A stretch of 64,000 nucleotides of DNA from Candidatus Levybacteria bacterium RIFCSPHIGHO2_01_FULL_40_16 (GCA_001783805.1 MFNS01000001.1:257074-321073), one strand, 5' to 3'. Shown: positions 16,956-36,125, numbered from the stretch's first letter. The notes: generated by a model from the letters alone, not told the origin. Numbers and translations: made by a program.

Positions 16956-17489
16956 TCATAACTCCGACATTACTGAAATCCGATAAGCATTTGTACTCAC
17001 ATCCAAAGCCAAAGAACTGAGGGTTAAGGATTTAATTATTTCTTTATTGTGGACCATGTTTGTTAGGTTATCTATGAATTCACCGATTGCGAAAAGGGAT
17101 TTTGATTGACCGGCAATAATAACTGATTTGTCATCCACCTCAAAATCGTCTACGGATAGTTCGCTAGGTATTTTTGCCAACAGTCCATTCATTGTCTTTA
17201 TTAGATCCTTTCTCATTTTTAAAATTTTGTCAATATTTTCTATCCTATTATTTAAAACAAAAAGCTTGACTTGTCGGTTTTGAAATTGCGACACTCCTTT
17301 TAGAACATTTTCCTGTTCCCTCTTGATAGCTCCGGGATTGATAATTTGAATCCATATGAAAAGACTCAGGGAGATCAAGCCAACACCTATTAAAGATACG
17401 GCCGCGGCAAGGTTAAGAATTCTAATTTCTTTTTTCTTCTTTAACGATTCCTTGTCTGTACGTAAAAGAAGGTTAATATTTGCATTCAT
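16956..17489 (-). CDS. pilN: type IV pilus assembly protein PilN
   Basis: N-terminal INLL motif, a single TM segment, and a position directly after pilM. Confidence 0.6.
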   Translation of the reverse strand: MNANINLLLRTDKESLKKKKEIRILNLAAAVSLIGVGLISLSLFIWIQIINPGAIKREQENVLKGVSQFQNRQVKLFVLNNRIENIDKILKMRKDLIKTMNGLLAKIPSELSVDDFEVDDKSVIIAGQSKSLFAIGEFIDNLTNMVHNKEIIKSLTLSSLALDVSTNAYRISVMSEL

Positions 17490-18517
17490 AAATCTCTCAT
17501 TGCAAGACCCAATGCGATAGTAAAATCAGAAGCATTGTTGAGTATTTCGGAGGGCAAAGGTTTGCCTCCAAAAATTTTCCACGGGTTTGCGACAACTGTC
17601 TCTATACCTAAATTCTCTGCAAAAAATAGATCGATTCCCGGCAAGCGGGCAGTACCTCCCGACAGTAATATCTGCTGAATTATTGAATCATCTTTATATT
17701 TTTGAGAATAAAAAGCTAAGGCTTTCCTTATCTCTAAGAGAATTGAAGAGAGGATTGGCTCAGTAGACTTGCCAACTTTTTGACCGGCTCCTACCTTTGA
17801 AAAACCATAGGTTTTCTTATATTCTTCTGATTGGGCTGGAGTTATTCCGAAATCTGCCTCTATTGACCTACTAATTGCATCTCCTCCCGTTCGTATTGAA
17901 TAGGTTAAAATCAAAATTCCATCTCTGATTATAGCTAAGGACGTGTTGATCGCACCTATACTCACAATTATTGTTGGGGGAAGATCCGCAGAAACTAAGG
18001 CTCGAACAATTGCCAAAGTCTCTGTTTCTATTGAATTTAAAGTAAGATTTGCCATCTGCAATATTCTTTGATATTTGCCAATAAGATTCGTTGGCGCCCC
18101 CACCATCAGAACCTGCATCTTTTCATCGCTAGAGGAGTTAAGAGGTTTCTTCAGGACGTTCCAAACCAAAGTTATCGTTGATAGCGCAACCGGGATATGG
18201 CGTTCGGCTTCCCAATAAATCGCTAAGGACAATTCCTTGTCGGACAAAACCGGCATTTCTATAACTTTTGTATAGACTTGATTATCGGAAAGCGCAATAT
18301 TTACGCTTCTACTGTTAGTTTTTAAACCGTCCACTGTCTTTCTTATGGTCTGGGCCATTTCCCTCTCGTCAATTGGCGCTTCCGAAAGCATCCCTTTGGG
18401 GGGAGAAGACATTACGCTAAAGCTATCCAAAATAAGATTATTATTCTGCCGCGATAGGGATACTGCTTTAATTTTAGTTAAACCTATATCCAGGCCAATC
18501 GACTTATTAAATATCAT
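17486..18517 (-). CDS. pilM: type IV pilus assembly ATPase-like protein PilM
   Basis: Actin/FtsA-like fold motifs (GLDIGLTKIKAV, LSGGTARLPGI). Confidence 0.8.
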   Translation of the reverse strand: MIFNKSIGLDIGLTKIKAVSLSRQNNNLILDSFSVMSSPPKGMLSEAPIDEREMAQTIRKTVDGLKTNSRSVNIALSDNQVYTKVIEMPVLSDKELSLAIYWEAERHIPVALSTITLVWNVLKKPLNSSSDEKMQVLMVGAPTNLIGKYQRILQMANLTLNSIETETLAIVRALVSADLPPTIIVSIGAINTSLAIIRDGILILTYSIRTGGDAISRSIEADFGITPAQSEEYKKTYGFSKVGAGQKVGKSTEPILSSILLEIRKALAFYSQKYKDDSIIQQILLSGGTARLPGIDLFFAENLGIETVVANPWKIFGGKPLPSEILNNASDFTIALGLAMRDL

Positions 18518-21152: not shown

Positions 21153-23141
21153 TTATGGCCTGTAGATGCTCACATGTGTTGCTTCGTTGCCGGCATCTGA
21201 TACCCAATAATAAACCGTATAGTGCATGAAGATAATCTGCGGGCACCCATTCACGAAATCGTTGATCAGATATTGATAATGATAGCTGGCTCCTGGCCCC
21301 AGTGTTAGCGGGAACGATGTTATCAGAAACGGATCATAAGTTATGCCGGAAGTTTCACTATGAGACTGCGACCAGAAGGTTATGGTATGGGTTGCCGATA
21401 CTGCATTATTGTTCTTTATGTCAACGTTATAATTAGGCGTCCAGTAGGCAGGCGCGCTTACACATACTTCTGCGCTGACTGTAGGATTACTAAACGCGAA
21501 TGGCGAGGAGGGTGCCGGTGTAGGAGTTGCTGTGGGAAGAGGAGTTGGGGTTGAGGTGGGAATAGACGTTGGCGTTGGGGTTGGATTCAATTTGATACCA
21601 AAGTTAACAGCGGCATTAGGACCAACCGAAGGAGTAAATGAAGTGGCAGTAGTAGCGGAATATCCGCTTGGCACACTTAATGAGACAGTGTAACTTCCCG
21701 AAACCGCATTCCAAACGTACTGACCGGAGGAATTGGTAGTTGCGGAAGAGGGCGTTCCGGGAGCAGAGATTGAAACAGTTGCTCCTCCTGAATAGCCCAA
21801 TTCTCCTCCGTCCTGTATCGCATTTCCATTTGAGTCTACAAATACGGTAGTTGTAATGGCGTATACGGGAACGCCGTTATAAAGGCTGGCTATTTCTGCT
21901 GACGACAACGCCCGGTTGTAAATGCGCACATCATCAATTTTTCCATTTATTGAATTGCCTCCGCCCGTATACGAGTCGCTGAAAGATCCTAGGAAAAATT
22001 TTGTCGCCGCAGTGCTTAAATTGCCGCTCTGATTATCTAAATCTTCCTGTATTCCATCCACATAAATTATTTGACTGGTTCCGTTATACGTAGCGGCAAA
22101 CTGATGAAACGCTCCGTCAGACCATTTTCCCGACGTTGTTAAACTACTAATTACCGCTGACGTTGTTCTACTTCTGTACTGAATGTTACCGCCTCCTACA
22201 TTCATATCCATGCTTATTGAACCTGCGCCATCCGATAATGGAAAACCAAAGACAACCCCTGAATCATTCGCATTTATTTGTATCCACATCATCACAGTCC
22301 AGGCATTTGTAAGTCCCAAATTATACGGAATCTGTATGTAATTACTGTCATTAAAACTGTATGCTTGTCCGATTTGACCAGCGACCAAGCTGGGAAGAGG
22401 ACTTCCGCCAAGAGTACCATTATTTCCATTAAAAGAATCATTAGCGTTGCCGTCGAATTTCCACCAGCCCACCAGACCGGGTATTGGGGTTGGGGTGGGG
22501 GTTGCGGTGGGAATAGGCGTTGGGGTTGGGGTAAGAATAGGCGTTGGCGTTGGGGTGGGAGCAGATGTTGGAGTCGAAAAGGGAGTAACGGTAGGACTAG
22601 GTATTGAAGTCGGAAGCGGAGTTGCGGTAGGAATTGTGGTAGGAATAGGCGTTGGCAACGACAATTGCACGTTAACTCTTCCCAGAGAATCAATTACAAT
22701 AAATCTTTGTTGACCATATCCGGAAAGCACAATGATATTGTCGGAACCCTGAGTTCCACCGGTTATTGTGGGAAAAAAAATAGTTTTACCAACACTGCCG
22801 GCATCAAAACTTACACCTCTCGGAAGAGTTTTTGTCGAAAGCGGCGGACCATTGATTCCGGAACCGGAACAACGACTCACTAAAGTATAGCTCGTATTCG
22901 AAACAATATTTACACCATATCCATCTAATGGATTGCATGCTCCGGAAGGCTTTATCTGCGATTGCGCGCGCGACTTGGCCAGATTCAACATCGTAACCAC
23001 CTCGTTGGTGGAAGTTTGCAGGACTTGAACTTGATTGTAATTTGCGAATCCTCCAATGCCCAATGTTCCCAAAACAGCTGTGATGCCTACTACAACCATT
23101 AGCTCAATGAGAGTAAAACCTTTTTGGAAAAATTTTTTCAT
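21153..23141 (-). CDS. large multidomain pseudopilin/adhesin-like protein (GspH/FimT-like pilin N-terminus, LamG lectin-like, CnaB/SdrD-like and novel C-terminal domains)
   Basis: [14 protein letters not shown] prepilin signal. Two TPTPTP linkers. A LamG-type block ([11 protein letters not shown]...[20 protein letters not shown]). A CnaB-like block ([30 protein letters not shown]). A C-terminal module shared with the 24697-26037 protein. Confidence 0.65.
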
Positions 23142-23620
23142 TTTAATACATTAGCTACAATAGTTTTTGTTTTTCCTCCGGAGGAGATAACAATTTGGCC
23201 CGGCGTATCCACTCCGCCCTTTTGTACCGGGAAGAAAAAAGAGGTGGGGAAAGTATCCGGACTTTTAAAACTTACATTTTGAGGAAGAGTTTTTGTTTGA
23301 AGATTGCTGGTAATTCCCGAGCAACGGCTGCTTAGCGTATAAGTCCGATTAATAATTGATATATCCACTTGGTATCCTTCCAGAATTTGCGAAGACGCGC
23401 TGCAGGATGTACCCATTTTCACCTGCGATTGCGCGCGCGACTTGGCCAGATTCAACATCGTAGTTACCTCGTTAGAGGAGTTCTGAAGAATCTGAGATTG
23501 ATTATAATTTGCAAATCCCGTAATACCCAATGCCCCCAAAGCAGCCATAATACTTATCGCAACCATTAGTTCAATTAGGGTAAATCCTCTCCGTTGCTTC
23601 GATTTGAAATTTATTTTCAT
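23138..23620 (-). CDS. GspH/FimT-like minor pseudopilin
   Basis: [57 protein letters not shown] is paralogous to the N-terminus of the 662-aa protein. Confidence 0.55.
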
Positions 23621-24162
23621 GGATTTTGAAGAGTATATTGCCAAAGAGTAGTGCTGCCAGAACAGTTTGCCTTGGGAACGTCCAATTGGGAATCATTTTC
23701 ATTCTCAAGGCAGGCAACCAGAGAATAGGTTGTGCCCGCAGAAGAAGAATAGGTGTAGGGTGTCGCAGAAGACGGATCGCAAGGGATTTTTGTCATATAA
23801 ACGGTCCCTGAAGGAGGACTGACAACCCCTTCTGAAGTCAAAGCATATCCGCAGGTTAAAGAGATACCGGTCGGATAATTACTCTGGTCTGACCTATAGA
23901 GTTCCAGAGCTGATTGGATTTGGCGAAGATCGGATTTGCGTACTCCGTCCCGGGCTCTTTGCCTTACTCCGACAAAATTTGCCAATAGGAAACTCGATAA
24001 AATACCAATAATTGCTATTGTCACTAACAACTCAATTAGGGTAAACCCAGCACCACTTCCGATTAAGTAAATTTTTTCTTTAAGTTTTTTTAATTCACAA
24101 AAGTGGTGCTGGGTAAACCCCTTTTTGTAAATTGTTAATTGTAAATTGTTAATTGTTTTCAT
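23617..24162 (-). CDS. GspG-like pseudopilin with a 24-codon insertion in the leader
   Basis: Start is coupled to the upstream stop by an ATGA overlap. Leader reads MKTINNLQLTIYKKGFT-QHHFCELKKLKEKIYLIGSGAG-FTLIELLVTIAIIG. Mature part has a GspG-like RKSDLRQIQSALELY motif. Confidence 0.6.
   Translation of the reverse strand: MKTINNLQLTIYKKGFTQHHFCELKKLKEKIYLIGSGAGFTLIELLVTIAIIGILSSFLLANFVGVRQRARDGVRKSDLRQIQSALELYRSDQSNYPTGISLTCGYALTSEGVVSPPSGTVYMTKIPCDPSSATPYTYSSSAGTTYSLVACLENENDSQLDVPKANCSGSTTLWQYTLQNP
24049..24110. mobile_element. 62-bp MITE-like palindromic element (10-bp TIRs AGCACCACTT/AAGTGGTGCT) flanked by a 10-bp direct duplication GGGTAAACCC (24039-24048 and 24111-24120)
   Basis: Read directly from the sequence. 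It is inserted in-frame in the prepilin G-F-T codons. A second copy lies at 28306-28367. Confidence 0.6.
24128..24155. repeat. perfect 14-nt tandem duplication (TAAATTGTTAATTG x2) in the first codons of the 23617-24162 pilin gene
   Basis: Read directly from the sequence. Confidence 0.6.
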
Positions 24163-24647
24163 GGACTCACATTCGGACTCGAAACCCCATAATTACAAAT
24201 GATGCTTCCGCTTGCACAAGCATTTGTCGGTATACCATTTGTTCCCAGGCTCGTACAAGCATTGCCCAGGTTGCACGCCTGCGGATCATTTCCACCCCTT
24301 TCCAGACTAGCATAAAGATAATAAGTTTGTCCATCGGAAGAAGAATAATACACATAATTTCTTGATGGAGATGCCGGATCTTTTGGCAAAGTACCCATGT
24401 AAGGCATCCAGGAAAGTCCCCATCCGATACCGGCAATTATGTAGCCGCTTGAATCAGGAAACTTTCCATAATCCTGATAATATGTCTCAAAAGCTCTCTG
24501 AATTTGAGCAAGATCAGATTTTCTTCTGGAATCGTTCGCTTTCTGAAATTGAGTCAGAGGATTTATGATGCTTATTATTGCCACTGCCAAAATTCCAATT
24601 ACGGCAATCACGATCAAAAGCTCTATCAAGGTAAACCCACGTCGCAT
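24159..24647 (-). CDS. type IV pilin (PilA/GspG-like)
   Basis: [24 protein letters not shown] with a short canonical leader, KSDLAQIQRAFETYY, and a Cys pair near the C-terminus. Confidence 0.7.
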   Translation of the reverse strand: MRRGFTLIELLIVIAVIGILAVAIISIINPLTQFQKANDSRRKSDLAQIQRAFETYYQDYGKFPDSSGYIIAGIGWGLSWMPYMGTLPKDPASPSRNYVYYSSSDGQTYYLYASLERGGNDPQACNLGNACTSLGTNGIPTNACASGSIICNYGVSSPNVSP

Positions 24648-24696
24648 ATACTCATGATAGCACAGTCAAATGTTCTGTCAAATAAATCCGAAGAAT

Positions 24697-26037
24697 TCAC
24701 GAGCCAGATCTGTAGAGTTCTGCTTTTGTTGAGTTGTTAGCGGCATCTGACACCCAATAGTAATACGTAGTGCTCAAGAATATAAGCGGATTGCAGTCAG
24801 TCATGATATTTACGAGCCAGTTATAATGATAACTCTCTCCGGGCCCCAGTGTCAGTGAGAACGACGTTATTGTATACGGAGAACTCATCGGTTGCCCGTC
24901 GCGCTGCCATTGCTGCCAGAAGGTTATGGTATGGGTTGCCGATACCGCATTGTTGTTCGTTATGTCAACGTTATAATTAGGCGTCCAGTAAATAGGGCCA
25001 TTTACGCATGACTGGGGACTGACCGTGGAATTGCTAAATGCGAATGGCGAGGTTGGAGTAGGGGTTGGGGTCGGCGTATTAGTTGGAATTGGCGTTGCAG
25101 TTGGAGTAGGTGTTGGCACAACAACCGTAATATCGGTATCCGTAGCTCCTGTAGATGGGCAAGTTCTTCCATCATTTAAATCCGCTGTCCCCCAGACGGC
25201 TGTCAGACCGGTTGCGACAGCAGTTGCCGTGGTCGAGTAAGGCGAGCTTGAATCGAAAGTGGGATTAACAGTAGCTATAGCAGTATTGTAAGAACCGAAA
25301 CGCATTTGATTTACTGTTGCCACTCCCAATCCCGAAGTAACACTAGCGGTGACCGTACTTGTTCCTCCGATAACCAAGGTTTGCGACGCGGGCGCAGTTG
25401 TGACTTGACAGGGCACTGGAGTTGGAGTGGGCGTTGAAGTAGGAACAAGAGTTGGGGTTGGTGTTGTAGGGGCAGGGGTTAATGTAGGAATTCCCGTAGG
25501 GGTAGGGGCGCCAAATGCGACAACCGAAGTATTGGTAGAAGTTATCGAATAGTTGTAACTATTACTCTTGCAAATTATATTAGGAATAGCCTGCGGGTCG
25601 GAATTTCTCTCAAGCTTGGCACTAAGTCTGAACGAGCTGCCGTCGCTTTCATAACAATAACTCTGTGCAACAAGCGGATCTTTGGGAAGTTTGGGCATAT
25701 AAACTCCTTCAATTTGCGTTAGATCGGCAGGGTAGCTATTGTTATCGTTATAATATGTGTCCAGGGCAGTTGCTATTTGCGAGAGGTTGTCTTTTCTTTG
25801 AGCATCATGGCTTTTCGCAAACTGCTCTATCGGATTTAAAACAAAAGCCAGCGAAGACGCCAAAACTCCAATTATGGCACCTGCAACCAAAAATTCAATT
25901 AGTGTAAAACCCGAAGGAAATTTTGAACGATAAAATTTCCGAAAAAAATTGACAATAAAGTTCCTGTGGCTAAAAAAGGTCCGAAGGGGATTACTGTTCC
26001 GAATGTCTCTCTCCTCTTCCATATAATTAGTATGCAT
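24697..26037 (-). CDS. large pilin-like protein with Pro/Thr-rich linkers and conserved C-terminal module; start uncertain because the leader overlaps pilD
   Basis: SGFTLIEFLVAGAIIGVLASS prepilin motif begins at about 25911. The 42 codons upstream lie inside the 3' end of pilD in another frame. The C-terminal 115 aa are about 50% identical to the C-terminus of the 21153-23141 protein. Confidence 0.6.
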   Translation of the reverse strand: MHTNYMEEERDIRNSNPLRTFFSHRNFIVNFFRKFYRSKFPSGFTLIEFLVAGAIIGVLASSLAFVLNPIEQFAKSHDAQRKDNLSQIATALDTYYNDNNSYPADLTQIEGVYMPKLPKDPLVAQSYCYESDGSSFRLSAKLERNSDPQAIPNIICKSNSYNYSITSTNTSVVAFGAPTPTGIPTLTPAPTTPTPTLVPTSTPTPTPVPCQVTTAPASQTLVIGGTSTVTASVTSGLGVATVNQMRFGSYNTAIATVNPTFDSSSPYSTTATAVATGLTAVWGTADLNDGRTCPSTGATDTDITVVVPTPTPTATPIPTNTPTPTPTPTSPFAFSNSTVSPQSCVNGPIYWTPNYNVDITNNNAVSATHTITFWQQWQRDGQPMSSPYTITSFSLTLGPGESYHYNWLVNIMTDCNPLIFLSTTYYYWVSDAANNSTKAELYRSGS

Positions 26038-26681
26038 CCCACAATTGCGCCTGTCAAGAATGCGATGTATAAGGCAACCACGATGTTCGGAAAACCCAAA
26101 ATTAGCCCCATTAGAAATGCGAATTTTACATCCCCAAATCCCATGCCTTTTCCCCTAGTCACAATGAGCAATGCTAGGAAAAACAAACCTGCCCCAAGGG
26201 CTGAGAGGAGATGGGGGGGTATTAAGTAGTAAGTATTAAGTATTAAGTATAGAAAAGAAATTATTATTGCAGGAAACACAATTTTGTCCGGAATAATACC
26301 ATATTTAAGGTCCGCAAAAAAAACCACAATCAAAGAGGAAGCAATAAATAAATAATATATAAGATTTATAATGTTTATAGTCGATATAAAATTTATATAT
26401 GCTCCTCCGATAAAAATAAAAACCCCGGCAAACAAAATCCCCGTTGTTAATTCAACAATCGGATAATAAAACGAAAGGGAAGTCCTACAGTAACGACATT
26501 TACCCTTGAGAAAAATAAAAGACAATAGGGGAATCAGATCAAACCAAGCCAATTCTTTTTTGCATTTCTCACAATGTGATCTTCCCTTAATCGCAGATTC
26601 TTCTTTTGGCAACCTGTCCGCCAAAACATTCAAAAAAGACCCAACAAAAAGCCCGAGAATAAAAATTAGCAATAAAACCAT
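25899..26681 (-). CDS. pilD: prepilin peptidase (A24 family)
   Basis: N-terminal CxxC...CxxC zinc-binding box, a polytopic membrane protein, and a GMGFGDVKF motif. Confidence 0.85.
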   Translation of the reverse strand: MVLLLIFILGLFVGSFLNVLADRLPKEESAIKGRSHCEKCKKELAWFDLIPLLSFIFLKGKCRYCRTSLSFYYPIVELTTGILFAGVFIFIGGAYINFISTINIINLIYYLFIASSLIVVFFADLKYGIIPDKIVFPAIIISFLYLILNTYYLIPPHLLSALGAGLFFLALLIVTRGKGMGFGDVKFAFLMGLILGFPNIVVALYIAFLTGAIVGCILIIWKRRETFGTVIPFGPFLATGTLLSIFFGNFIVQNFLRVLH

Positions 26682-26707
26682 GCATTATAAATATACCACA
26701 AAGTATA

Positions 26708-27532
26708 TTATTTAAACGCCAATAGGTGTTTTATTAAGCCTTGGGCGTAGAGCTGTTGGATCTGGGAAAAAGTAAGAGCTTGCTTGTAAATGCGCACATC
26801 ATCAATCAGTCCATTAGCGTAATAACCTGAAAAAAATCCGATGTAAAGAGGTCCTGTTTTTGAATTTGGTAAACCTGTTTTCGCTATTGTATCAGCTATT
26901 TGTATCCTGCCATCAGCATACATTTTAGCATTATCTATATCATTTTGGCCATTTCCAGTAACTATAAACACAAGGTGATGCCAATTTCCGTCGGCTATAT
27001 TTACAGGATTGTGAAAAAAATATTTAAAGTTACCGGCTCCAAGATAGATTAAAGATCGTCCGGCTGTCCAAACTGGTAAAATAGCAGGAAGACCAGATGC
27101 TGAAAATGAAACTAATGGCCAATAAATTCCTGATTGCCACTTTATCCAAGCTTCAACGGTAAATACGTCCGGCTTTAAACTCGTCCTATTTCCCGCGTCA
27201 ATATACGCCGTTCCGTTAAAGTTACTTGCTTTATTTCTATTCCTCCTGTCTAATGCCGGGGTTACGTTAATCCCCATACCATTATTACCATTTCCTGAAG
27301 TATCTTTAAAAGTGCCATCATCAAATGTCCATTCTCCCACAAGATCAATAGCAAGATTGTTTTGTATTCCTGCCGAGAACGTCTCCGCCTTAGCAATATT
27401 GGCGGAATTAATCTTTCCTGCGGGATCTATGGCTACAAGCACTCCTGTTCCCAAAACTCCCACCACCGCTATCACTATGAGAAGTTCTATCAAGGTAAAG
27501 CCTTTCTTAAATTGTGCTTTCAATATCTTCAT
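26708..27532 (-). CDS. pilin-LamG (concanavalin A-like lectin) fusion protein, paralog 1
   Basis: [44 protein letters not shown], then a LamG-like domain ending in IDDVRIYKQALTFSQIQQLYAQGLIKHLLAFK. Confidence 0.7.
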   Translation of the reverse strand: MKILKAQFKKGFTLIELLIVIAVVGVLGTGVLVAIDPAGKINSANIAKAETFSAGIQNNLAIDLVGEWTFDDGTFKDTSGNGNNGMGINVTPALDRRNRNKASNFNGTAYIDAGNRTSLKPDVFTVEAWIKWQSGIYWPLVSFSASGLPAILPVWTAGRSLIYLGAGNFKYFFHNPVNIADGNWHHLVFIVTGNGQNDIDNAKMYADGRIQIADTIAKTGLPNSKTGPLYIGFFSGYYANGLIDDVRIYKQALTFSQIQQLYAQGLIKHLLAFK

Positions 27533-27558
27533 AATTTAATTAGATGTATTCCCTGGTA

Positions 27559-28398
27559 TTATTTAAACGCCAATAGGTGTTTTACTAAGCCTTGGGCATA
27601 GAGCTGTTGGATCTGGGAGAAAGTAAGAGCTTGTTTGTAAATCCGTACATCGTCGATAATCCCCTTAAATGAGGAGGTTCCACCGGAACTAATGCTGGAC
27701 ACGCCCGCAATGATATGCGATCCTGCTTGTTGAGTTACACTGTATCTCACTCCATTAACATAAAGTTTTGCCGTATTGGTGTCGGCATTATCGGTATAGG
27801 TTAAAACTAAGAAATACCAGGTATTTATGGAAGGATTCCAATTGATGTAATCGTTAGTGCTGCCAAAGTACAAGAAATTATTAGCGTAATGCTGATAAAA
27901 ATTATTGAACAAATGATTATGATTTCCCTTGTCTGATGCTGATTGATCCCAATAAAACCATCCTGTCTGAGTTTTTACTACGCCTGTCGCGGAAAAGTTT
28001 ATGTAAGCATCTGAACCATCAAAACTATATGCCTTGTTGGCTCTACCCCTTCTATCTGCTGTTAATGTAGCTCCTATTACCGTACCGTTATTCCTATATC
28101 CTGAGGTATCATTTGCATTGCCATCAAATGTCCATTCTCCGACCAGATCAATAGCGAGATTGTTGTTTATACTTGCTGCATATGTTTCCATATTAGCAAG
28201 CTTGGCGGAATTAATCTTTCCTGCCGGATCTATAGCTACAAGCACTCCAGTTCCTAAAACCCCCACTACCGCTATGACTATGAGAAGTTCGATAAGGGTA
28301 AACCCAGCACCACTTATAAAAACCTCCATTTGTTTTTTAAGTTCTTTTAATTCACGCAAGTGGTGCTGGGTAAACCCCCTTGACCAATGTTTTTCCAT
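27559..28398 (-). CDS. pilin-LamG fusion protein, paralog 2, with a 24-codon leader insertion
   Basis: MEKHWSRGFT-QHHLRELKELKKQMEVFISGAG-FTLIELLIVIAVVGVLGTGV... followed by the same conserved C-terminus. Confidence 0.7.
   Translation of the reverse strand: MEKHWSRGFTQHHLRELKELKKQMEVFISGAGFTLIELLIVIAVVGVLGTGVLVAIDPAGKINSAKLANMETYAASINNNLAIDLVGEWTFDGNANDTSGYRNNGTVIGATLTADRRGRANKAYSFDGSDAYINFSATGVVKTQTGWFYWDQSASDKGNHNHLFNNFYQHYANNFLYFGSTNDYINWNPSINTWYFLVLTYTDNADTNTAKLYVNGVRYSVTQQAGSHIIAGVSSISSGGTSSFKGIIDDVRIYKQALTFSQIQQLYAQGLVKHLLAFK
28306..28367. mobile_element. second copy of the 62-bp MITE-like element (same TIRs), with GGGTAAACCC duplications at 28296-28305 and 28368-28377
   Basis: The arms are identical to the copy at 24049-24110 and the internal 42 nt are similar (shared TTTTTTAAGTTCTTTTAATTCAC core). 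Confidence 0.6.
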
Positions 28399-28440
28399 AA
28401 ATTATCTCCTATGAAAATCATATACCAACATAAAGCATTA

Positions 28441-29250
28441 TTAAAGTATCAATAGATGCCTTATTAAGCCTTGCGCATAGAGTTGCTTGATTTGGGAGGA
28501 TAAAAGCGCAGATTTGTAAACCCGCACATCATCAATTACACCATAAAAATAGGAATACCTGTTACCAATCCAAAGAGAGTCTGATGTCGTACCCGCATTT
28601 ATCGTTTGAGTAACAGTTCCTCCATATTGTGAACCATCAACAAAAGCTCTTAAAAAGCTTCCGCTCCAAGTAAAGACTAAGTGATGCCAGACACCGATGG
28701 TAGGCTTGCCAAAACTAACACTATTGTATGGCACACCGTTGTCTATGCTGCCCTCTATAGCGGTTGTTGTGAATACGGTAATGGCATAGCCGGGTGTATC
28801 CCATCCCGCAGAAGCCCCTTTACTTACTATGGCGGGGTATGTTCCGGCGCTATAAGAGCTTATCTTAATCCAAACCTCAATTGTCCCAGCATTTGTTAAA
28901 TTCAAGCTTGCGCCATTTCCCGCATTAATAAACGCCGTTCCGTTAAAGTTGCTTGCTTTATTCCTATCCCTCCTGTCTAATGCCGAGGTTACGTTAATCC
29001 CCATACCATTATTACCATATCCTGAAGTATCTTTAAAAGTGTTATCATCAAATGTCCATTCTCCGACCAGATCAAAACCAAGAGAGTTTTGTATTCCTGC
29101 CGAGAACGTCTCCGCCTTAGCAATATTGGCAGAATTAATTTTTCCTGCCGGATCTATGGCTACAAGCACTCCGGTTCCCAAAACTCCCACCACCGCTATG
29201 ACTATGAGAAGTTCGATAAGAGTAAAACCCCTTACTAAAATTATTTTCAT
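28441..29250 (-). CDS. pilin-LamG fusion protein, paralog 3
   Basis: [28 protein letters not shown]..., IDDVRVYKSALLSSQIKQLYAQGLIRHLLIL. Confidence 0.7.
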   Translation of the reverse strand: MKIILVRGFTLIELLIVIAVVGVLGTGVLVAIDPAGKINSANIAKAETFSAGIQNSLGFDLVGEWTFDDNTFKDTSGYGNNGMGINVTSALDRRDRNKASNFNGTAFINAGNGASLNLTNAGTIEVWIKISSYSAGTYPAIVSKGASAGWDTPGYAITVFTTTAIEGSIDNGVPYNSVSFGKPTIGVWHHLVFTWSGSFLRAFVDGSQYGGTVTQTINAGTTSDSLWIGNRYSYFYGVIDDVRVYKSALLSSQIKQLYAQGLIRHLLIL

Positions 29251-29254
29251 AAGA

Positions 29255-30106
29255 TCATCTAAATGCCAACAAATGTTTTACTAAGCCTTGGGCGTAAAGC
29301 TGTTTGATCTGGGAGGATAAAAGAGTAGCCTTATAAATCCGCACATCATCAATGGAGCCAGTGAAATAGTCCGCGCCTCTCCACCAACCAACTGCATATC
29401 CAATTCTAAATGCGTTTCCTCCGCTGTCTGCAAATCCTGCTGTTCCATTATTCGCTCGTTTATCCAATACGCCATCTATATAAATTGAATCAGTAATACC
29501 TGCCCTTGTAATCGCAATATGATGCCAGTTTGTGTTAGGTACTGCAGAAATACTGATAGATTGTCTATATGAACCACCACCATCCGTATACTGGAATTCA
29601 AGCTTGTTGCCAGTCTGCATAGTTAAAGCCCACTGATAATTACCTTTTCCCCATATTCCATTTTCTACGCCGAGCTGGTTGAGCTTAATCCATCCCTCAA
29701 TTGTAATCGCATTAGTAATATTCAAATTCGCCCCACTTCCTGTATTTATATAGCCCGAGCCAGCAAGGCTGTACGCTTTACTACCCCTATTTCTTCTATC
29801 TGGTGCTAGAGCTACACCGCTTCCTACTATTGAAGTTATATTTTCATATCCCGAAGTATCATTTGCATTACCGTCAAATGTCCATTCTCCGACCAGATCA
29901 AAAGCGAGATTGTTTTGCACACTTGCCGAGAAGGTTTCCGCCTTAGCAATATTGGCAGAATTAATTTTTCCTGCCGGGTCTATAGCTACAAGCACTCCGG
30001 TTCCCAAAACTCCCACCACTGCTATGACTATTAAAAGCTCAATAAGGGTGAAGCCTTTGGATCGAATAGCGAATAATGAATTATGAATAACGGTTTTTAT
30101 ATATAT
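29255..30106 (-). CDS. pilin-LamG fusion protein, paralog 4, with no ATG start (non-AUG start or pseudogene)
   Basis: The open frame reads [35 protein letters not shown]... from a TAG stop at 30107-30109. Candidate starts are ATT/ATA only. The ORF track begins at the internal Met at 30019. Confidence 0.5.
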   Translation of the reverse strand: MYIKTVIHNSLFAIRSKGFTLIELLIVIAVVGVLGTGVLVAIDPAGKINSANIAKAETFSASVQNNLAFDLVGEWTFDGNANDTSGYENITSIVGSGVALAPDRRNRGSKAYSLAGSGYINTGSGANLNITNAITIEGWIKLNQLGVENGIWGKGNYQWALTMQTGNKLEFQYTDGGGSYRQSISISAVPNTNWHHIAITRAGITDSIYIDGVLDKRANNGTAGFADSGGNAFRIGYAVGWWRGADYFTGSIDDVRIYKATLLSSQIKQLYAQGLVKHLLAFR

Positions 30107-30181
30107 CTAGTAAATCACGCTTTACAAAGCTTGTCAAAGAAACTGAACCCAAAAGAGTAAATCAAGAAATTATATAAAGTT

Positions 30182-31462
30182 TTATTTACGCGGATAACAT
30201 TGCTGGCAAAAAATAGTATCCGTATTATTAAACCTATAGAGCGAAAACGAGTATAGCCTGACATCATAGCTTCGAGGAACCTTAATTCCAACAAGCAACG
30301 GGTAATAAATTGCAAAAATGATTATACTGACCAATATTGTAGACGCAAGTAACTGCAATTTTATTTTTGTTTTCCGGATTAATAGTAAAAACATTATTAT
30401 TGCCATGGGAATAAGCGGGATAATATAATAGTAAAAAGTTGCATGTAGATTAAAAAACCACGGTAAATAAAGCAGGGAAAACACCATAACAAGAAAGCTT
30501 TGCTTTTTTTGTTTTAATATTCCTTTCCGCAAAATGAAAATCATAGATGCAACTAAAGAGATTAGGGTAAAAATTGTTATAAGTGGATTTGCAAATGCAA
30601 TAATAGACATTACGCTCTCTCCTTGTGGAACTCGATAAAGAGTTAATATCTGCGGGATTGTGAACCATGTCCAGGCAGGCGAGTGAAGATAACCAGACAG
30701 ATTAATTACCCCTCCAATTTGAGAATTGAATAATCGATATATAAATTCTGCAAATCCAATACTGGTCTTCTTAAAAAAGAAGATACCATTGCCAATGGTA
30801 AAGGCTAGGGAAAGAAAAGTTAGAAATAAGAAATTAATTTTTGCAATTTCTCGCAATTTTAGATTTTTCCCCTGATTAAAAATCATGAACAATAAAGGAA
30901 AAAGGGGAATGAGTAAAACAGCTGACAATTTCGCTGCAAGAGATAATCCTAAGAAAATTCCGCTGACGTAAAAAAGCTTAAGTTTTTTCCCATCAAGATA
31001 TTTTAAATAATAATATATGCTGGACAGCAAAAAGAACAATGCGGGAATATCCAGCTGCAATAATCGGCTAAAAGTGAAGAACATAGGGTCAATGGCAAGC
31101 AAGATAACGCAAAGGAAAGATATAGTCTTAGAAAAAAAGACCCGGGCAATTTTATAAAAGACTAGAAGTGATCCAATGGAAAAAAGAATAGTTCCAAGTC
31201 TATAAAATATAGGTTTATATATTCCGGTTATCCCGGAAAATATATATACGAAATAATACCAGATTGTTTTCGCTAGAAGAGGATGATTATTATTGTCAAT
31301 TTTTCCGTCTAATAAAGAAAAAACACTTGACCTATACACTTTTTCATCACCAACTAAAAGCCCAATTGAGTTTATGTTGTAAGCTAAAAGGAATAGATAA
31401 AGCAAAAATAAAACTATAATAATAGAAAGAAGATTTCTTTTAATAATCAATTTAAAATCCAT
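30182..31462 (-). CDS. GT-C fold PMT/ArnT-like (GT39/GT83-type) polytopic glycosyltransferase
   Basis: At least 10 predicted TM segments, a first-loop GDEKVY acidic motif and an HPLLAK motif resembling the GT39 HPPL box. It lies immediately downstream of the candidate major pilin gene. Confidence 0.5.
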   Translation of the reverse strand: MDFKLIIKRNLLSIIIVLFLLYLFLLAYNINSIGLLVGDEKVYRSSVFSLLDGKIDNNNHPLLAKTIWYYFVYIFSGITGIYKPIFYRLGTILFSIGSLLVFYKIARVFFSKTISFLCVILLAIDPMFFTFSRLLQLDIPALFFLLSSIYYYLKYLDGKKLKLFYVSGIFLGLSLAAKLSAVLLIPLFPLLFMIFNQGKNLKLREIAKINFLFLTFLSLAFTIGNGIFFFKKTSIGFAEFIYRLFNSQIGGVINLSGYLHSPAWTWFTIPQILTLYRVPQGESVMSIIAFANPLITIFTLISLVASMIFILRKGILKQKKQSFLVMVFSLLYLPWFFNLHATFYYYIIPLIPMAIIMFLLLIRKTKIKLQLLASTILVSIIIFAIYYPLLVGIKVPRSYDVRLYSFSLYRFNNTDTIFCQQCYPRK

Positions 31463-31526
31463 ATTAAAGCGATTTTCTCATTTTCCTAAAAATTAACAAT
31501 ACAAGGGGATAGAGAAGTTCCAATCT

Positions 31527-31997
31527 TTACGGACAGGTTGTTTGAGCGGCAACAGCAGTGATGGAAGTTTTGAAAACAGCGTTAGTAGAATCCCAGCACC
31601 AAAATGATCTTGTAGTCGGACTGAATAACGCTCCCCACACTGCAACATTTTGTCCTGCAACTCCGGTGTAGCAGTAGTTTGTAGAGTCAGCGCCAGCTGC
31701 AGTTACACAACCGAGATTGCCAGATTGCTGATTAGGCAAGACCTTTAATTCTCCAGGTACAAGAGACGACAACGCAACTGGATAAATAGGCGCAGGCTGC
31801 GCTGTATAATATGCCTGCAAAGCGCTGACTAGTTGACTCATGTCGCTTTTGATTGTTGAATCCTTGGCTGAATTAATTTTTGCAACAGGATTAATGGCTG
31901 CGATAACTGCTGCTGCCAAAACTCCCAAGACTGCAATGACGACCAGAAGTTCGATTAGGGTGAAGCCTTTGTGGGAAGATTTATTAAATAATTTCAT
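31527..31997 (-). CDS. pilA: type IV pilin, candidate major pilin
   Basis: [37 protein letters not shown], about 150-aa mature protein adjacent to pilC. The ORF track extends to 32075. Confidence 0.6.
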   Translation of the reverse strand: MKLFNKSSHKGFTLIELLVVIAVLGVLAAAVIAAINPVAKINSAKDSTIKSDMSQLVSALQAYYTAQPAPIYPVALSSLVPGELKVLPNQQSGNLGCVTAAGADSTNYCYTGVAGQNVAVWGALFSPTTRSFWCWDSTNAVFKTSITAVAAQTTCP

Positions 31998-32071
31998 GTT
32001 CTTAATTAGTAAAACAGAAAAATAAATGCTTGTCAAGTGGCAAAATAGCCTCAATTTTCTTTTACTCATTT

Positions 32072-33289
32072 TCATTTTATTGATGAAGTGATTTGATAGA
32101 TTGGCGTGATTATAGAGAATATCAGAAATGCAACTCCAACGCCTAGCACCACCAAGATAAATGGTTCCATTGCGGTTGAAAGGGTCTTCACGGATTGATC
32201 AACTTCGTTTTCAAAATATTCAGATGCTTTAGCGAGTGTCTCATCCAATTTTCCCGTCTGCTCTCCGATCTTAACCAGCTCTATCAAATTGAGAGGGAAA
32301 AGATAATACAGGCTCATCGCATCTCCAATACTTATTCCTTTTTCCACCCTTTTTGAGACATCCACAATTGCATTTTTATAATGAATATTACCGGTAATAT
32401 CGGACACTTTATCCAAAGCCTCAACTACCAATGTCCCCGATGCCAACAGGGCACCAAGAGTTCTGGAAAATTCTGCCAAGATTGTTTTTTTTATCAGACT
32501 GCCAAAAATAGGAAGTTTCAATTTCATACTATCTATAGTAAGCTTACCCTCCATTGTTTTGTACCAGCGTTGGTATGCAAGCCAGACGAGAACCAAGAAC
32601 GCTATGACGATAAACCAAAATGAAACAAAGAAATTTGAAATTTTTATCAGGATGAGTGTTGGCAACGGTAAAGAAATGTTCATGCTCTGGTAAAGTATGG
32701 AAATTTGAGGAATAACAAAAATCATCATTATAAAAACTACAATCGCCATCATGAGAATAACGATTACCGGATATGTAAGCGCGCCCCTGATCGTATTTTT
32801 CAGTCTTTGCTGTTTTTCCAAAGTATCAGCCAGTCGCAAAAAGGCCTTATCCAAAAGACCGGATCCTTCAGATGCTTCTACCAACGCTATATAAACCGGA
32901 GAAAAGACTGTAGGATGCTTTGCAATTGCGCGGGAAAAACTTGACCCTTCCTGAATATCCCTGATAATGCCGTCTATAATGTCTATCAAAGTGTGATTTT
33001 CGATTTGATTTTTTAATATCTCCAGACTTCTTAAAAGAGTGAGTCCCGAACTAAGCATCGAAGACAATTGTCTGGTAAAATTAAGCACTTCTTGAGACCT
33101 AACTCTATCTCCAAGAAAGGGTATTAAATTTACAAATCTGTTTTTCCCCCTTTTAATTATCTCTATCGGAGTGAGCTCTTTGCTTCTAAGATACGCTGCT
33201 GCTTCGCTTGGGTTTCTTGCTTCGATTATTCCACTAATTGGTTCTCCTTTATCGGTTACAGCTTTGTAGTACAGTCTCATATTAGCCAA
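32072..33289 (-). CDS. pilC: type IV pilus platform protein PilC (GspF family)
   Basis: Two GspF-type repeats with three TM segments; it overlaps pilT by 8 nt and the pilin gene by 4 nt. Confidence 0.85.
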   Translation of the reverse strand: MANMRLYYKAVTDKGEPISGIIEARNPSEAAAYLRSKELTPIEIIKRGKNRFVNLIPFLGDRVRSQEVLNFTRQLSSMLSSGLTLLRSLEILKNQIENHTLIDIIDGIIRDIQEGSSFSRAIAKHPTVFSPVYIALVEASEGSGLLDKAFLRLADTLEKQQRLKNTIRGALTYPVIVILMMAIVVFIMMIFVIPQISILYQSMNISLPLPTLILIKISNFFVSFWFIVIAFLVLVWLAYQRWYKTMEGKLTIDSMKLKLPIFGSLIKKTILAEFSRTLGALLASGTLVVEALDKVSDITGNIHYKNAIVDVSKRVEKGISIGDAMSLYYLFPLNLIELVKIGEQTGKLDETLAKASEYFENEVDQSVKTLSTAMEPFILVVLGVGVAFLIFSIITPIYQITSSIK

Positions 33290-34349
33290 CCATTCTTAAG
33301 AAGTCCTCCTGATGCAGGGAGTAGCTTTTGCCTATATCCAGACTAATACTTCCTGACAAAACCAGAGCAGACAAGGATGAATCTATGCCAATCATGCCTT
33401 TGTCTTTGGAAGTTTGTATTACCGAATCTATAAGATGGGTCTTTCCGTCCCGCACAATGCTCGCAACCGCAGGAGTCCCAAGGAGAACCTCTACAGCGGG
33501 CACTCTTCCTCCGCTGATCATCGGCAAAAGCCTTTGTGAAACAATCCCCTTCAGGGTGGCAGCCAGCTGAATTTTTATTTGAGACTGCTGTGTTGCGGGA
33601 AATGAATCAATGATTCTGTCTATGCTTTGAGCCGCCGAATTTGTATGCAGGGTTGAAAAAACCAGATGTCCTGTTTCGGCAATTGTGATCGCGGCGGCAA
33701 TTGTTTCGGAATCCCGCATTTCCCCAACCAGTACAACATCAGGATCTTCACGAAGAGCCGCACGAAGGGCAAAATCCCAAGAGTGAGTATCGATGCCCAT
33801 TTCACGCTGGCTGATGATACTCTTTCCCTTCGGATACACATATTCAATCGGATCTTCGATGGTTACTATGTGAGCCGCTCTTTTCAGATTTATTTCGTTG
33901 ACAATTGAGGCAATGGTCGTAGATTTTCCATGCCCTGTCGGACCGGTAATTAAGATAAAGCCCTGAGTTAAATCCGAAAAAGTATGTAAAACTTGAGGCA
34001 AATGGAGCTCCTCGATAGACAATATGCCGGGATTAAGAAAACGGAAAGCGCCCGAGAGATTTCTTCTCTGGTAGTATAAATTCGTCCGGAAGCGGCCAAG
34101 ATCCCCATATGCTCCCCCTCCAAAACCAAAAGAAAAATCCAACTCTTTGTTGGCGAGCAATAGTTCTTTCTGAACAGGATCTAACAATGAATATACCATT
34201 TTTTCTATTTCCGGCAGGGTTAACGGCGCGTATCCGGTTAAATATCTTAAGGAACCGTCTATTCGAAGTGTGGGAGGAATACCGACCAAAAGATGCAAGT
34301 CCGAGGCTTTTTCCTTAACTGTTATCTTAAAAAGTTCTTGTATATCCAT
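33282..34349 (-). CDS. pilT: twitching-motility/retraction ATPase PilT
   Basis: Walker A GPTGHGKSTT, Asp box and His box; no N-terminal GspE_N domain. Confidence 0.8.
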   Translation of the reverse strand: MDIQELFKITVKEKASDLHLLVGIPPTLRIDGSLRYLTGYAPLTLPEIEKMVYSLLDPVQKELLLANKELDFSFGFGGGAYGDLGRFRTNLYYQRRNLSGAFRFLNPGILSIEELHLPQVLHTFSDLTQGFILITGPTGHGKSTTIASIVNEINLKRAAHIVTIEDPIEYVYPKGKSIISQREMGIDTHSWDFALRAALREDPDVVLVGEMRDSETIAAAITIAETGHLVFSTLHTNSAAQSIDRIIDSFPATQQSQIKIQLAATLKGIVSQRLLPMISGGRVPAVEVLLGTPAVASIVRDGKTHLIDSVIQTSKDKGMIGIDSSLSALVLSGSISLDIGKSYSLHQEDFLRMVG

Positions 34350-34352
34350 ACA

Positions 34353-36125
34353 TTATTCCTGCGCAACGCGCAGCACTTCTTCAACCGTAGTTATGCCTTG
34401 CAAAACCTTTAGGTATCCGTCCTGCTTCATTGTAATCATGCCTTCCAGAATTGCTTCTTTTTCCATTGTAGCACTATCTGCGTTCTCCAGAACCAGATTA
34501 GCAATTTTAGGCGTGACAGGCAGGGTTTCGAAAATTCCAATCCTGCCTAAGTATCCTGATTTCCCGCATTGATCGCAACCTTTTCCGCGGCTTAGTTTTA
34601 TATCCGGTTGAGTTTGGGGAAAAATTTTTCCTAATACTTTTTTAATTTCATCCAGTATTTGGGGCAGAGGAGGGTATTTCTCTTTGCAATTATCGCATAT
34701 TCTCCTAACAATCCTTTGTCCCAAAATCGCATTCATTGTTGATGCCAGAAGAAAATTTTCTGCTCCCAAATCCAAAAGTCGGGGGAGAGCCCCCGCAGCA
34801 TTCGAAGTGTGCAAGGTTGAGAAAACTAAATGACCGGTAAGGGCTGCCTGCAAGGCAAGCTCGTTGGTTTCTTTATCCCGAATTTCCCCGACCAATATTA
34901 TATTTGGGTCTTGACGAAGAAAAGCTCTAAGTCCGGTTGCAAAAGTAAGTCCGACTGCGGGATTTACCGCGACCTGATTTACTCCGGGCAACTGATATTC
35001 AATCGGATCCTCCAAAGACATAATATTGACCCTGGTTGTATTAAGTTTTGCCAAAATTGAATAAAGGGTTGTTGTTTTACCTGCCCCCGTCGGACCGCAG
35101 ACAAGAATAATTCCATGCGGTCTAAGCATTGCGGTTTCTATATTTCTAAGCGAATTTCCATTCAGACCCAGTTCATCCAAGGTTGGTATTCCTCCAGTTT
35201 TCCTAAGGAGCCTCATGAGTATTTTTTCTCCATGCGAAGTTGGCAAAACGGATATACGCAGATCCACCTCCTCATTGGAAATTTTGAAATTAAATCGGCC
35301 ATCCTGAGGAAGGCGATGTTCGTCAATCTTCATTTCCGATAAAATTTTTATACGTGAAATAACCGCATCCTGAACATTTTTTGGAAGGCTTAATTTGTCA
35401 TACAAAATTCCATCTATTCTGTATCTTACTCTGACCCGATCCTCCTGGGGCTCGATGTGAACATCCGATGCTCTCGAAGTTACCGCGTATTCCAAAATAG
35501 TCGAAACTATTTTGGCAATTGGAGCCTCTTTAATTATCTCGCCGATTTGCTTACTATCGACAGTTCTTGTCTTTTCGTAAGCCTCTGTCTCTGCTAAGGC
35601 CTCACCAACCTCTCCTACGATTTCCTGACTATATTGTTCACTGATTGCCTTTTTTACTTCCTCTTTGGCTGCGGCAAAGGATTTTATTGTCAATCCTGTT
35701 TTTTGCGCAACGAATTGCAGTGCTTCCAGATCTACGGGATTACTCATTGCTATAGAAAGAGTCCCGGCTTTTTCGTCATAAAGGAAGGGAATTAGGGAAA
35801 ATCTTTCTACAACCGCTTTAGGAATAAGACTGATTGCTTGGGGAGAAAAAGACGTTGTTTCTAAAGATATGAAAGGAACACCGAGTAATTTTGCTTTTGC
35901 TTGGGCAAGCTTTTTCTCCGGAACTATATTCATTGCCTCCAAAATACCTGTAGCAGATACACCCTGACTGGTACTTTTAACTTTTATGTCATCGTATTGT
36001 TCCTTAGTAATTAAATTATCCTCAAGTAAAATCTCGAGAAGAGTTTTATGCTCCGGCAATTGTTGCGTGTTAAAATCTGAAGTAGGCATTACTTTAATAA
36101 TAGGTAAAAATAAACTATAATTCAA
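34353..36125 (-). CDS. pilB: type IV pilus assembly ATPase PilB (GspE family)
   Basis: N-terminal T2SSE_N domain, Walker A GPTGAGKTT, and a tetracysteine zinc motif (CDNC...CDQC). Confidence 0.9.
   Translation of the reverse strand: MNYSLFLPIIKVMPTSDFNTQQLPEHKTLLEILLEDNLITKEQYDDIKVKSTSQGVSATGILEAMNIVPEKKLAQAKAKLLGVPFISLETTSFSPQAISLIPKAVVERFSLIPFLYDEKAGTLSIAMSNPVDLEALQFVAQKTGLTIKSFAAAKEEVKKAISEQYSQEIVGEVGEALAETEAYEKTRTVDSKQIGEIIKEAPIAKIVSTILEYAVTSRASDVHIEPQEDRVRVRYRIDGILYDKLSLPKNVQDAVISRIKILSEMKIDEHRLPQDGRFNFKISNEEVDLRISVLPTSHGEKILMRLLRKTGGIPTLDELGLNGNSLRNIETAMLRPHGIILVCGPTGAGKTTTLYSILAKLNTTRVNIMSLEDPIEYQLPGVNQVAVNPAVGLTFATGLRAFLRQDPNIILVGEIRDKETNELALQAALTGHLVFSTLHTSNAAGALPRLLDLGAENFLLASTMNAILGQRIVRRICDNCKEKYPPLPQILDEIKKVLGKIFPQTQPDIKLSRGKGCDQCGKSGYLGRIGIFETLPVTPKIANLVLENADSATMEKEAILEGMITMKQDGYLKVLQGITTVEEVLRVAQE

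Follow-up and report, generated by a model that had tools for sequence, protein, structure and literature searches.

Pilins that combine N_methyl with PF13385 belong to the 15 commonest modular pilin architectures; carbohydrate binding is predicted for them, and candidate-phyla bacteria are among the representatives of the 15 architectures (Raynaud et al., 2021; PMC8179133). In Streptococcus sanguinis, PilA and PilC form a glycan-binding complex of minor pilins, and the ConA-like lectin domain is that of PilC (Shahin et al., 2023; PMC9934059). In Patescibacteria, type IV pili that bear lectin-like minor pilins are the leading candidates for host recognition, and in TM7x, a member of the Saccharibacteria, the deletion of pilX2 reduced host binding while added sugars, especially rhamnose, reduced the binding of TM7x (PMC11623550). 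Here we describe a tandem array of four pilin-LamG genes (c1 to c4) within a type IV pilus operon of the ultrasmall, uncultured Candidatus Levybacteria bacterium RIFCSPHIGHO2_01_FULL_40_16, contained in a stretch of 64,000 nucleotides (GCA_001783805.1, MFNS01000001.1:257074-321073) that was analysed as a whole and is referred to as the window. The lectin-like heads encoded by the array are old, and the ends that surround them have been homogenised between the copies.

In their pair of Pfam domains and the order of these, copies c1-c4 agree with the modular pilins of Raynaud et al. (IPR012902 + PF13385). That catalogue (PMC8179133) lists single proteins, without tandem arrays or homogenised ends, and in c1-c4 the jelly roll is predicted to follow directly on the alpha-1 helix instead of being grafted on a small globular pilin module. 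PilX1 and PilX2 of TM7x, which resemble c1-c4 by architecture, are likewise products of a patescibacterial pilus operon and minor pilins with a beta-jelly-roll, L-type lectin-like head; in PilX1, however, a lollipop pilin has the jelly roll added at its C-terminus, a domain that NCBI CD-Search missed according to that study, and no tandem array of paralogues was reported (PMC11623550). The pilE/pilS system of Neisseria also involves tandem pilin-related copies, conserved blocks and gene conversion, whereas the Levybacteria array consists of full-length copies in which conversion affects the conserved ends, with no guanine quadruplex (G4) motif and no population variation among the five loci compared. 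A literature search found no paper on tandem pilin-LamG arrays or on homogenised ends.

The architecture itself is already catalogued, and the homogenisation of the array adds a small, incremental point on the evolution of modular pilins: concerted evolution of the stalk at the codon level, seen again in a distant array of six genes, which leaves the established picture unchanged. Patescibacteria live attached to other microbes, and the four co-operonic heads, together with two encoded elsewhere in the genome and a LamG pilin of 662 residues, provide a candidate set for host recognition. The targets of pilus adhesion may be varied in this way in such bacteria, and the array illustrates this clearly, though as a fairly ordinary case.

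Domain architecture of the array

The four genes lie back to back on the minus strand, as a sequence-only reading of this DNA had described them, with intergenic gaps of 26, 42 and 4 nucleotides (nt). These are c1 (26708-27532; 274 amino acids, aa), with a 10-residue leader, MKILKAQFKK, ahead of GFTLIE; c2 (27559-28398; 279 aa), with a long leader that contains a palindromic insertion; c3 (28441-29250; 269 aa); and c4 (29255-30106), an intact frame without a canonical start codon. Both Pfam domains scored above their gathering cut-offs in each of them, N_methyl with 22-31 bits (cut-off 21.2; 29.6 bits in c1) and Laminin_G_3 with 42-93 bits (cut-off 27.6), namely 72.5, 42.1, 80.9 and 93.0 bits in c1 to c4, respectively, c4 being the best of the four. 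The TIGR02532 GFxxxE pilin domain was also above cut-off in all copies, and the cleavage motif, K/R-G followed by FTLIELLIVIAVVGVLGTGVLVAI, is present in the four of them, including c4 with its missing start codon. Type IV pilins are recognised by such a motif, in which a short basic leader has Gly at its end and F/M at +1, Glu at +5 and ~20 hydrophobic residues come next.

The first 45 residues of the mature N-terminus (GFTLIELLIVIAVVGVLGTGVLVAIDPAGKINSANIAKAETF..) are the same in c1, c3 and c4 and differ by 5 substitutions in c2, and the C-terminal sequence IDDVR(I/V)YK..QI(Q/K)QLYAQGL(I/V)(K/R)HLL is common to all copies. Alignment of the four bore out the proposed contrast between conserved ends and diverged lectin-like cores: amino acid identity between copies was 82-95% in the N-module (GFTLIELLIVIAVVGVLGTGVLVAIDPAGKINSA...LVGEWTFD), 71-97% in the C-end (the last 32 residues, IDDVRIYK...QLYAQGL.KHLL) and 21-38% in the core, that of c2 being the most divergent. 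Open reading frames (ORFs) on the plus strand over the N-termini (e.g., 28034-28414 and 28949-29284) correspond to antisense read-through of the conserved helix codons and were not considered genes.

Age of the cores and homogenisation of the ends

The combination of conserved ends and divergent cores is largely a property of the whole family. Among 34 homologues from other genomes the mean identity of N-module, core and C-end was 0.62, 0.23 and 0.62, compared with 0.90, 0.25 and 0.81 within the array. The four cores are thus old lineages, as far apart as unrelated family members, because their synonymous sites are saturated (pS 0.65-0.85) and their identity within the array equals that of unrelated members; the core of c2 is closest to P0014, a protein from another genome (0.42), above any of its array neighbours. 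The sequence-only reading had proposed dN/dS per domain as a check on its interpretation. At the ends dS was 0.3-0.65 (Nei-Gojobori), and the ratio, where measurable, was 0.03-0.66, in all cases below 1. In the cores the saturation of synonymous sites makes the ratio meaningless, and therefore dN/dS is unable to show diversifying selection there. The linker of c1 and c3 had a dS of 0.11, in contrast to their saturated core.

As the core ratio was uninformative, the age of the ends was approached by a same-codon test, that is, the fraction of sites with identical residues that use the same codon, which controls for constraint at the protein level. Within the array this fraction was 0.74 in the N-module, 0.68 in the C-end and 0.40 in the core, with a codon-usage expectation of 0.39; compared with the core, the excess was significant in the N-module (Fisher p = 1e-13) and in the C-end (p = 3e-7), in a test whose pairs are not independent of each other. 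Between species, N-modules with 62-76% amino acid identity reached only 0.37-0.46. The ends are therefore of much more recent common ancestry than the cores.

The shared segments are mosaic, different pairs of copies having different segments in common. A tract of 300 nt common to c1 (27174-27473) and c3 (28901-29200), both on the minus strand, is 91% identical and is followed by sequence with ~50% identity; in sliding windows the identity of this pair was 87-98% from residue 14 to ~107 and then ~50%. Copies c1 and c2 share a 3' tract (26706-26816 and 27557-27667, minus strand) with 89-93% nucleotide identity, reaching 93% over the last 30 codons in sliding windows, and c2 and c4 are 93% identical around DLVGEWTFDGNANDTSGY. 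Such mosaic sharing is what old paralogues show after repeated gene conversion, and not what a recent duplication with rapid divergence would leave. The same pattern was found in GCA_030594935.1, a distant Patescibacterium with six tandem pilin-LamG genes located outside any pilus operon, where third-position identity falls from 0.6-0.75 at the ends to ~0.3-0.4 in the core; its N-terminal sequence is specific to that array.

Predicted structure and proposed role

AlphaFold2 models of c1 and c2 were obtained from an alignment of 102 sequences. The c1 model (pLDDT 84) comprises an alpha-1 helix (residues 14-59), a beta jelly roll (64-249) and a C-terminal helix (255-273); that of c2 (pLDDT 82.7) has the same layout, with alpha-1 at residues 35-82 and, ahead of it, a further helix predicted in the leader. 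Alpha-1 is modelled at high pLDDT in both. Neither model shows a separate pilin beta-sheet head, or a globular pilin module between alpha-1 and the jelly roll, and the pilin module of these proteins is therefore predicted to be reduced to the helix. In terms of the models, the conserved ends would correspond to the pilin assembly helix and the first strand of LamG_3 (LVGEWTFD..DTSGYGNNG) on one side, and on the other to the strand with which LamG_3 finishes (IDDVRIY), together with its terminal helix.

The profile of the family matches the N-terminal segments of solved pilins. Among solved structures, the head has its nearest relatives in clostridial neurotoxins, with their lectin-like HCN domains, and in the sialic-acid-binding CBM40 modules; its nearest relative in sequence is domain 4 of AbnA, a GH43 arabinanase of Geobacillus stearothermophilus (PDB 5HON). 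We take AbnA domain 4 to be a carbohydrate-binding module; unlike c1-c4 it is part of a secreted glycoside hydrolase and not of a pilin. By analogy with AbnA domain 4, CBM40 and PilC, the heads are predicted to bind carbohydrates. TafC, a subunit of the haloarchaeal Tat-fimbria (PMC11821415), was also considered as an identity for these proteins and was rejected, since its NCBIfam model matched with 48 bits against a cut-off of 410, a similarity at the domain level only.

Based on the evidence above, we consider it probable that c1-c4 are modular type IV pilins of the Levybacteria pilus, in which an old repertoire of heads, probably glycan-binding, is carried on a homogenised stalk. In such proteins the class III signal peptide and the hydrophobic alpha-1 helix would constitute the module for filament assembly, joined directly to a LamG/concanavalin-A-like jelly roll that replaces the usual pilin head and is followed by the conserved C-terminal helix. 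The prepilin peptidase encoded next to the array would cleave after the Gly of K/R-G, ahead of FTLIE; the helix would then dock the subunit into the pilus encoded by the same operon, probably as a subunit of low abundance or at the tip, and the jelly roll would thereby be exposed and serve for binding, most likely to surface glycans of a host or partner cell. The four old heads would provide a repertoire of distinct binding heads, with the assembly module and the last strand and helix kept alike by a structural constraint common to the family plus repeated gene conversion among the copies. Glycan or host binding by pilus subunits is the role that these sequences appear to support best, and the description of the array as adhesin-tipped pilins is plausible by analogy.

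Copy 4 and the sampled population

The absence of an ATG in c4, reported by the sequence-only reading, was confirmed in every assembly and extends to GTG and TTG. An in-frame TAG is located at 30107-30109 and none of the three codons is found between it and the GFT motif (G codon at 30053-30055), the first canonical start being a GTG at 30019, within the mature helix. Members of the c4 protein cluster have all been called at 250-254 aa from internal starts, none of them with an upstream ATG. The frame is otherwise intact, and the ATG of c3 lies 4 nt past the c4 stop. The in-frame peptide upstream of the cleavage motif (IKTVIHNSLFAIRSK followed by GFT, with IKTVIHNSLFAIRSKGFT in the same upstream frame) resembles the long leader of the homologue P0032 (MNQGKLKTIIHNSLFMIPSHR followed by GFT), and because of this resemblance the sequence suggests that the 5' end of the c4 leader was lost. 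Translation of c4 may proceed from a near-cognate codon, the candidates being ATA at 30106 and 30100 and ATT at 30088 and 30067, or the copy may be silent.

The c1 protein was found, without any change, in assemblies of ENA, JGI and NCBI, on at least 24 contigs in all. All four genes were present in the five loci compared (99.8-100% identity), one of which is on a contig of 409 kb, and the array differed from the window by 0-2 single-nucleotide polymorphisms (SNPs), with no swapped cores. The metagenome-assembled genome (MAG) at NCBI contains an additional run of Ns within c4. A chimeric protein was encountered, P0130 (272 aa; source SRC, SRR3990172), in which the c1 leader MKILKAQFKK is joined to the body of c3. 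This source is believed by us to be a catalogue assembled at the protein level, and because of this and of a junction that falls inside a stretch identical between the copies, P0130 is most likely an assembly chimera rather than a real recombinant.

Alternative explanations

The sequence-only reading had interpreted the array as a duplicated and diversifying cassette with ongoing turnover, a view that would amount to a recent duplication in which positive selection drives the lectin cores apart. Cores that differ far more than the ends are what such a process would produce, and copy number does vary between lineages (1, 2, 4 or 6 copies), with a split copy in the related contig L021 and a copy without a start codon in c4; turnover between species is thus supported. 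Within the sampled population, on the other hand, the array is essentially invariant, with 0-2 SNPs among the five loci compared. The recent origin itself does not agree with core synonymous sites that are saturated, with same-codon use in the core at the codon-usage expectation, with a core identity of 25% in the array and 23% among unrelated members, with a c2 core whose nearest relative is a foreign protein, or with dN/dS values that stay below 1 wherever they can be measured, and we disfavour this explanation as quite unlikely. An assembly duplication artefact, which the same reading had named among the results that would overturn it, is refuted for practical purposes: the repeated 5' and 3' blocks are able to mislead short-read assemblers, c4 of the NCBI MAG contains Ns and contigs of relatives end within their arrays, but c1 recurs on 24 or more contigs of three different sources, the same four distinct genes were reproduced in the five loci compared, and cores that are only 21-38% identical can therefore be neither collapsed nor duplicated reads. 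Variation of the pilE/pilS kind, with the conserved blocks as homology arms, c4 as a silent donor and heads swapped into expressed copies, would account for the codon-level gene conversion of the ends, for mosaic tracts that differ by pair, for a c4 that is startless in every assembly yet intact in its frame and highest in its LamG score, and for the c1/c3 chimera P0130. It is very unlikely all the same, as the exchanged tracts are the conserved ends and not the variable cores, no head-swapped variant occurs in the five loci compared or among the cluster members listed, P0130 is most likely a chimera of assembly, and no G4 motif of the form (G3+N1-7)3G3+ was found on either strand of 23001-33000. 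Nor does the locus have the structure of a pilE/pilS-type locus, where one expressed gene is accompanied by silent copies that are promoterless and 5'-truncated, since c1-c3 have an ATG and full leaders, and c4, which is not 5'-truncated, keeps its mature N-terminus and a leader remnant. A wider version, in which the 5' (~180-300 nt) and 3' (~100 nt) blocks act as recombination arms of a genome-wide library of heads that includes c4 and the gene e1 described below, replaced or reshuffled by gene conversion on a constant stalk, with the palindromic GFT-site insertions perhaps modulating which copy is translated, is unlikely as well; if true, it would represent a mechanism of host-range switching based on pilins and specific to Patescibacteria. 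A diversity-generating retroelement was rejected as the source of core variation: a crude screen of window ORFs longer than 250 aa found no Y[AVLIM]DD reverse transcriptase (RT) motif, c1/c3 mismatches showed no adenine bias, and no repeat resembling a template repeat/variable repeat (TR/VR) pair was found.

As for function, the LamG pilins might serve not as adhesins for host glycans but in the capture of DNA for uptake, in the priming of pilus assembly or in the binding of a protein. Two further tandem pilin-LamG genes, e1 and e2 (298 and 301 aa), are found on another contig of the Levybacteria genome (L084, 5063-6906) next to the genes for LeuRS, comEA and comEC, and one such gene lies in the same neighbourhood in another metagenome contig. 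The N-module of e1 is of the array type (same-codon fraction ~0.7), whereas the N-terminus of e2 resembles the putative major pilin. This recurrent synteny with comEA/comEC hints at a link of LamG pilins to DNA uptake and would fit such a role rather than adhesion. Proteins and lipids are ligands of LamG and jelly-roll domains too, the matches to toxin HCN domains being in line with this, and for c1-c4 a glycan is a predicted ligand. The alternative is nevertheless unlikely considering that the nearest sequence relative, AbnA domain 4, is taken to bind carbohydrates and that both of the cases studied, S. sanguinis PilC (PMC9934059) and TM7x PilX1 (PMC11623550), point to glycans. Besides the comEA/comEC neighbourhood and the range of LamG ligands, several points weigh against the reading of c1-c4 as glycan-binding pilins on a homogenised stalk. 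Among solved pilins that contain a lectin module, PilC of S. sanguinis (PDB 7OA7) comes closest, yet it is structurally a distant relative (12% identity) and, unlike c1-c4, retains the small pilin module; the processing of c1-c4, their incorporation into pili, their position in the filament and their ligand are all predicted from sequence; c4 has no canonical start codon; the C-end exceeds other species only modestly in same-codon use (0.67 vs 0.43-0.58); and the pairs compared in that test, as mentioned, are not independent. Even so, modular pilins with old, probably glycan-binding heads are the explanation we favour.

Palindromic insertions in pilin leaders

The leader of c2 contains an in-frame insertion (28296-28377, minus strand) that adds 72 nt in all, of which 62 nt constitute the insert proper (28306-28367). 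The ends of the insert are perfect 10-nt inverted repeats (AGCACCACTT/AAGTGGTGCT) and it is flanked by a 10-bp direct repeat (GGGTTTACCC) corresponding to the codons G-F-T, the 72-nt segment having an inverted repeat with arms of 20 nt. A second copy, 82% identical, occupies the same GFT codons of another pilin gene of the window (24039-24120), and both fold as strong hairpins, with an RNA fold of -44.6 kcal/mol and z-scores of -5.2 and -6.9. In contigs L020 and L021 the second host gene has an orthologue with no insertion, which provides an empty site. Given the inverted ends, the target duplication on the flanks, the presence of two copies and the orthologue with an empty site, the description of the c2 insert as resembling a miniature inverted-repeat transposable element (MITE), made by the sequence-only reading, is fair, and the element may be mobile.

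Besides the two copies of the window, shorter palindromes between duplicated GFT codons were found in 6 of the 135 pilin N-termini of the fetched loci; these metagenome loci were collected with the generic pilin motif FTL[IVL]ELL[IV]V and are mostly ordinary pilins. A doubled GFT motif in the leader is present in 10 of 120 family proteins. All such inserts are in frame and within the part removed by the peptidase. The places with GFT-site insertions include L084 5087-5125 and 6025-6060 as well as L085, L086 and L018, and at least three types can be told apart by protein reading (QHH...SGA, TF(S/M)..ER and R(Y/C).TAP), the long type having the 10-nt ends and the 10-bp duplication. A protein search with a 42-aa profile of the leader insertion gave no scored match, and only 3 candidates shared words with it. 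Judging by their sequence features, these inserts could be a site-specific mini-element and its deletion derivatives, or a regulatory hairpin in the mRNA. The ENA contig L005 matches the window up to ~23894 (L005 ~13640) and its last ~115 bases then diverge inside the pilin gene 23617-24162, which holds the second palindromic insertion; variation between strains or an effect of the assembly end may account for this.

Relatives in other genomes

A profile search recovered 347 relatives at E <= 1e-10 among 8000 scored candidates, most of them 260-330 aa long, with both domains and from Patescibacteria. When the genome collection was scanned with c3, the matches were all to distant LamG domains of unrelated phyla, and sister arrays were not among them. 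The best matches to the c3 head outside Patescibacteria were in L006 (38% identity) and L009 (28%), MAGs labelled as archaea (uncultured archaeon and Candidatus Ainarchaeum), which could reflect LamG surface proteins common to ultrasmall episymbionts, or mis-binning.

Pilus operon context

The type IV pilus operon that contains the array is complete and lies on the minus strand, with the gene order PilB-PilT-PilC-pilin-PMT-array-PilD-pilins-PilM. At its head are the PilB-like ATPase (34353-36125), the PilT-like ATPase (33282-34349) and PilC (T2SSF; 32072-33289), directly followed by a small pilin (31527-32075), the putative major pilin, whose N-terminus has 75% nucleotide identity with that of c4. 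Between the latter and the array is a glycosyltransferase gene of the PMT/GT-C family (30182-31462; PMT_2 57.4 bits, PMT 44.1 bits). Its position recalls that of the pilin glycosyltransferases encoded beside pilA in Pseudomonas. The prepilin peptidase PilD (25899-26681; A24_N_bact 111.8 bits, Peptidase_A24 60.4 bits) starts 26 nt downstream of the array, and beyond it there are five more pilins and then PilM (17486-18517). Among these pilins, the one of 662 aa (21153-23141), with N_methyl, Laminin_G_3 and SdrD_B, represents a further LamG-bearing pilin of the same operon. Promoter and terminator scans showed no enrichment over shuffles, and the only match of an Rfam scan was a tRNA at 1213-1286.

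A syntenic operon is present in another Microgenomates contig, L086, with a single LamG pilin at the position of the array and without the PMT gene. Related Levybacteria contigs have at least one LamG pilin at this position plus an AbiEii insertion: a 67-aa ORF and an AbiEii-family gene separate the LamG pilin(s) from the prepilin peptidase in L018 (1425-2275), L020 (1926-2776) and L021 (2667-3517), and in L021 the LamG pilin is split into ORFs of 90 and 126 aa. Two large pilins of the operon (21153-23141 and 24697-26037) have Pro/Thr-rich linker repeats in common, of the GTTGGGGTTGG type with a 12/24-nt periodicity in plus-strand reading, and share a block of 207 nt (21367-21573 and 24911-25117) with 76% identity.

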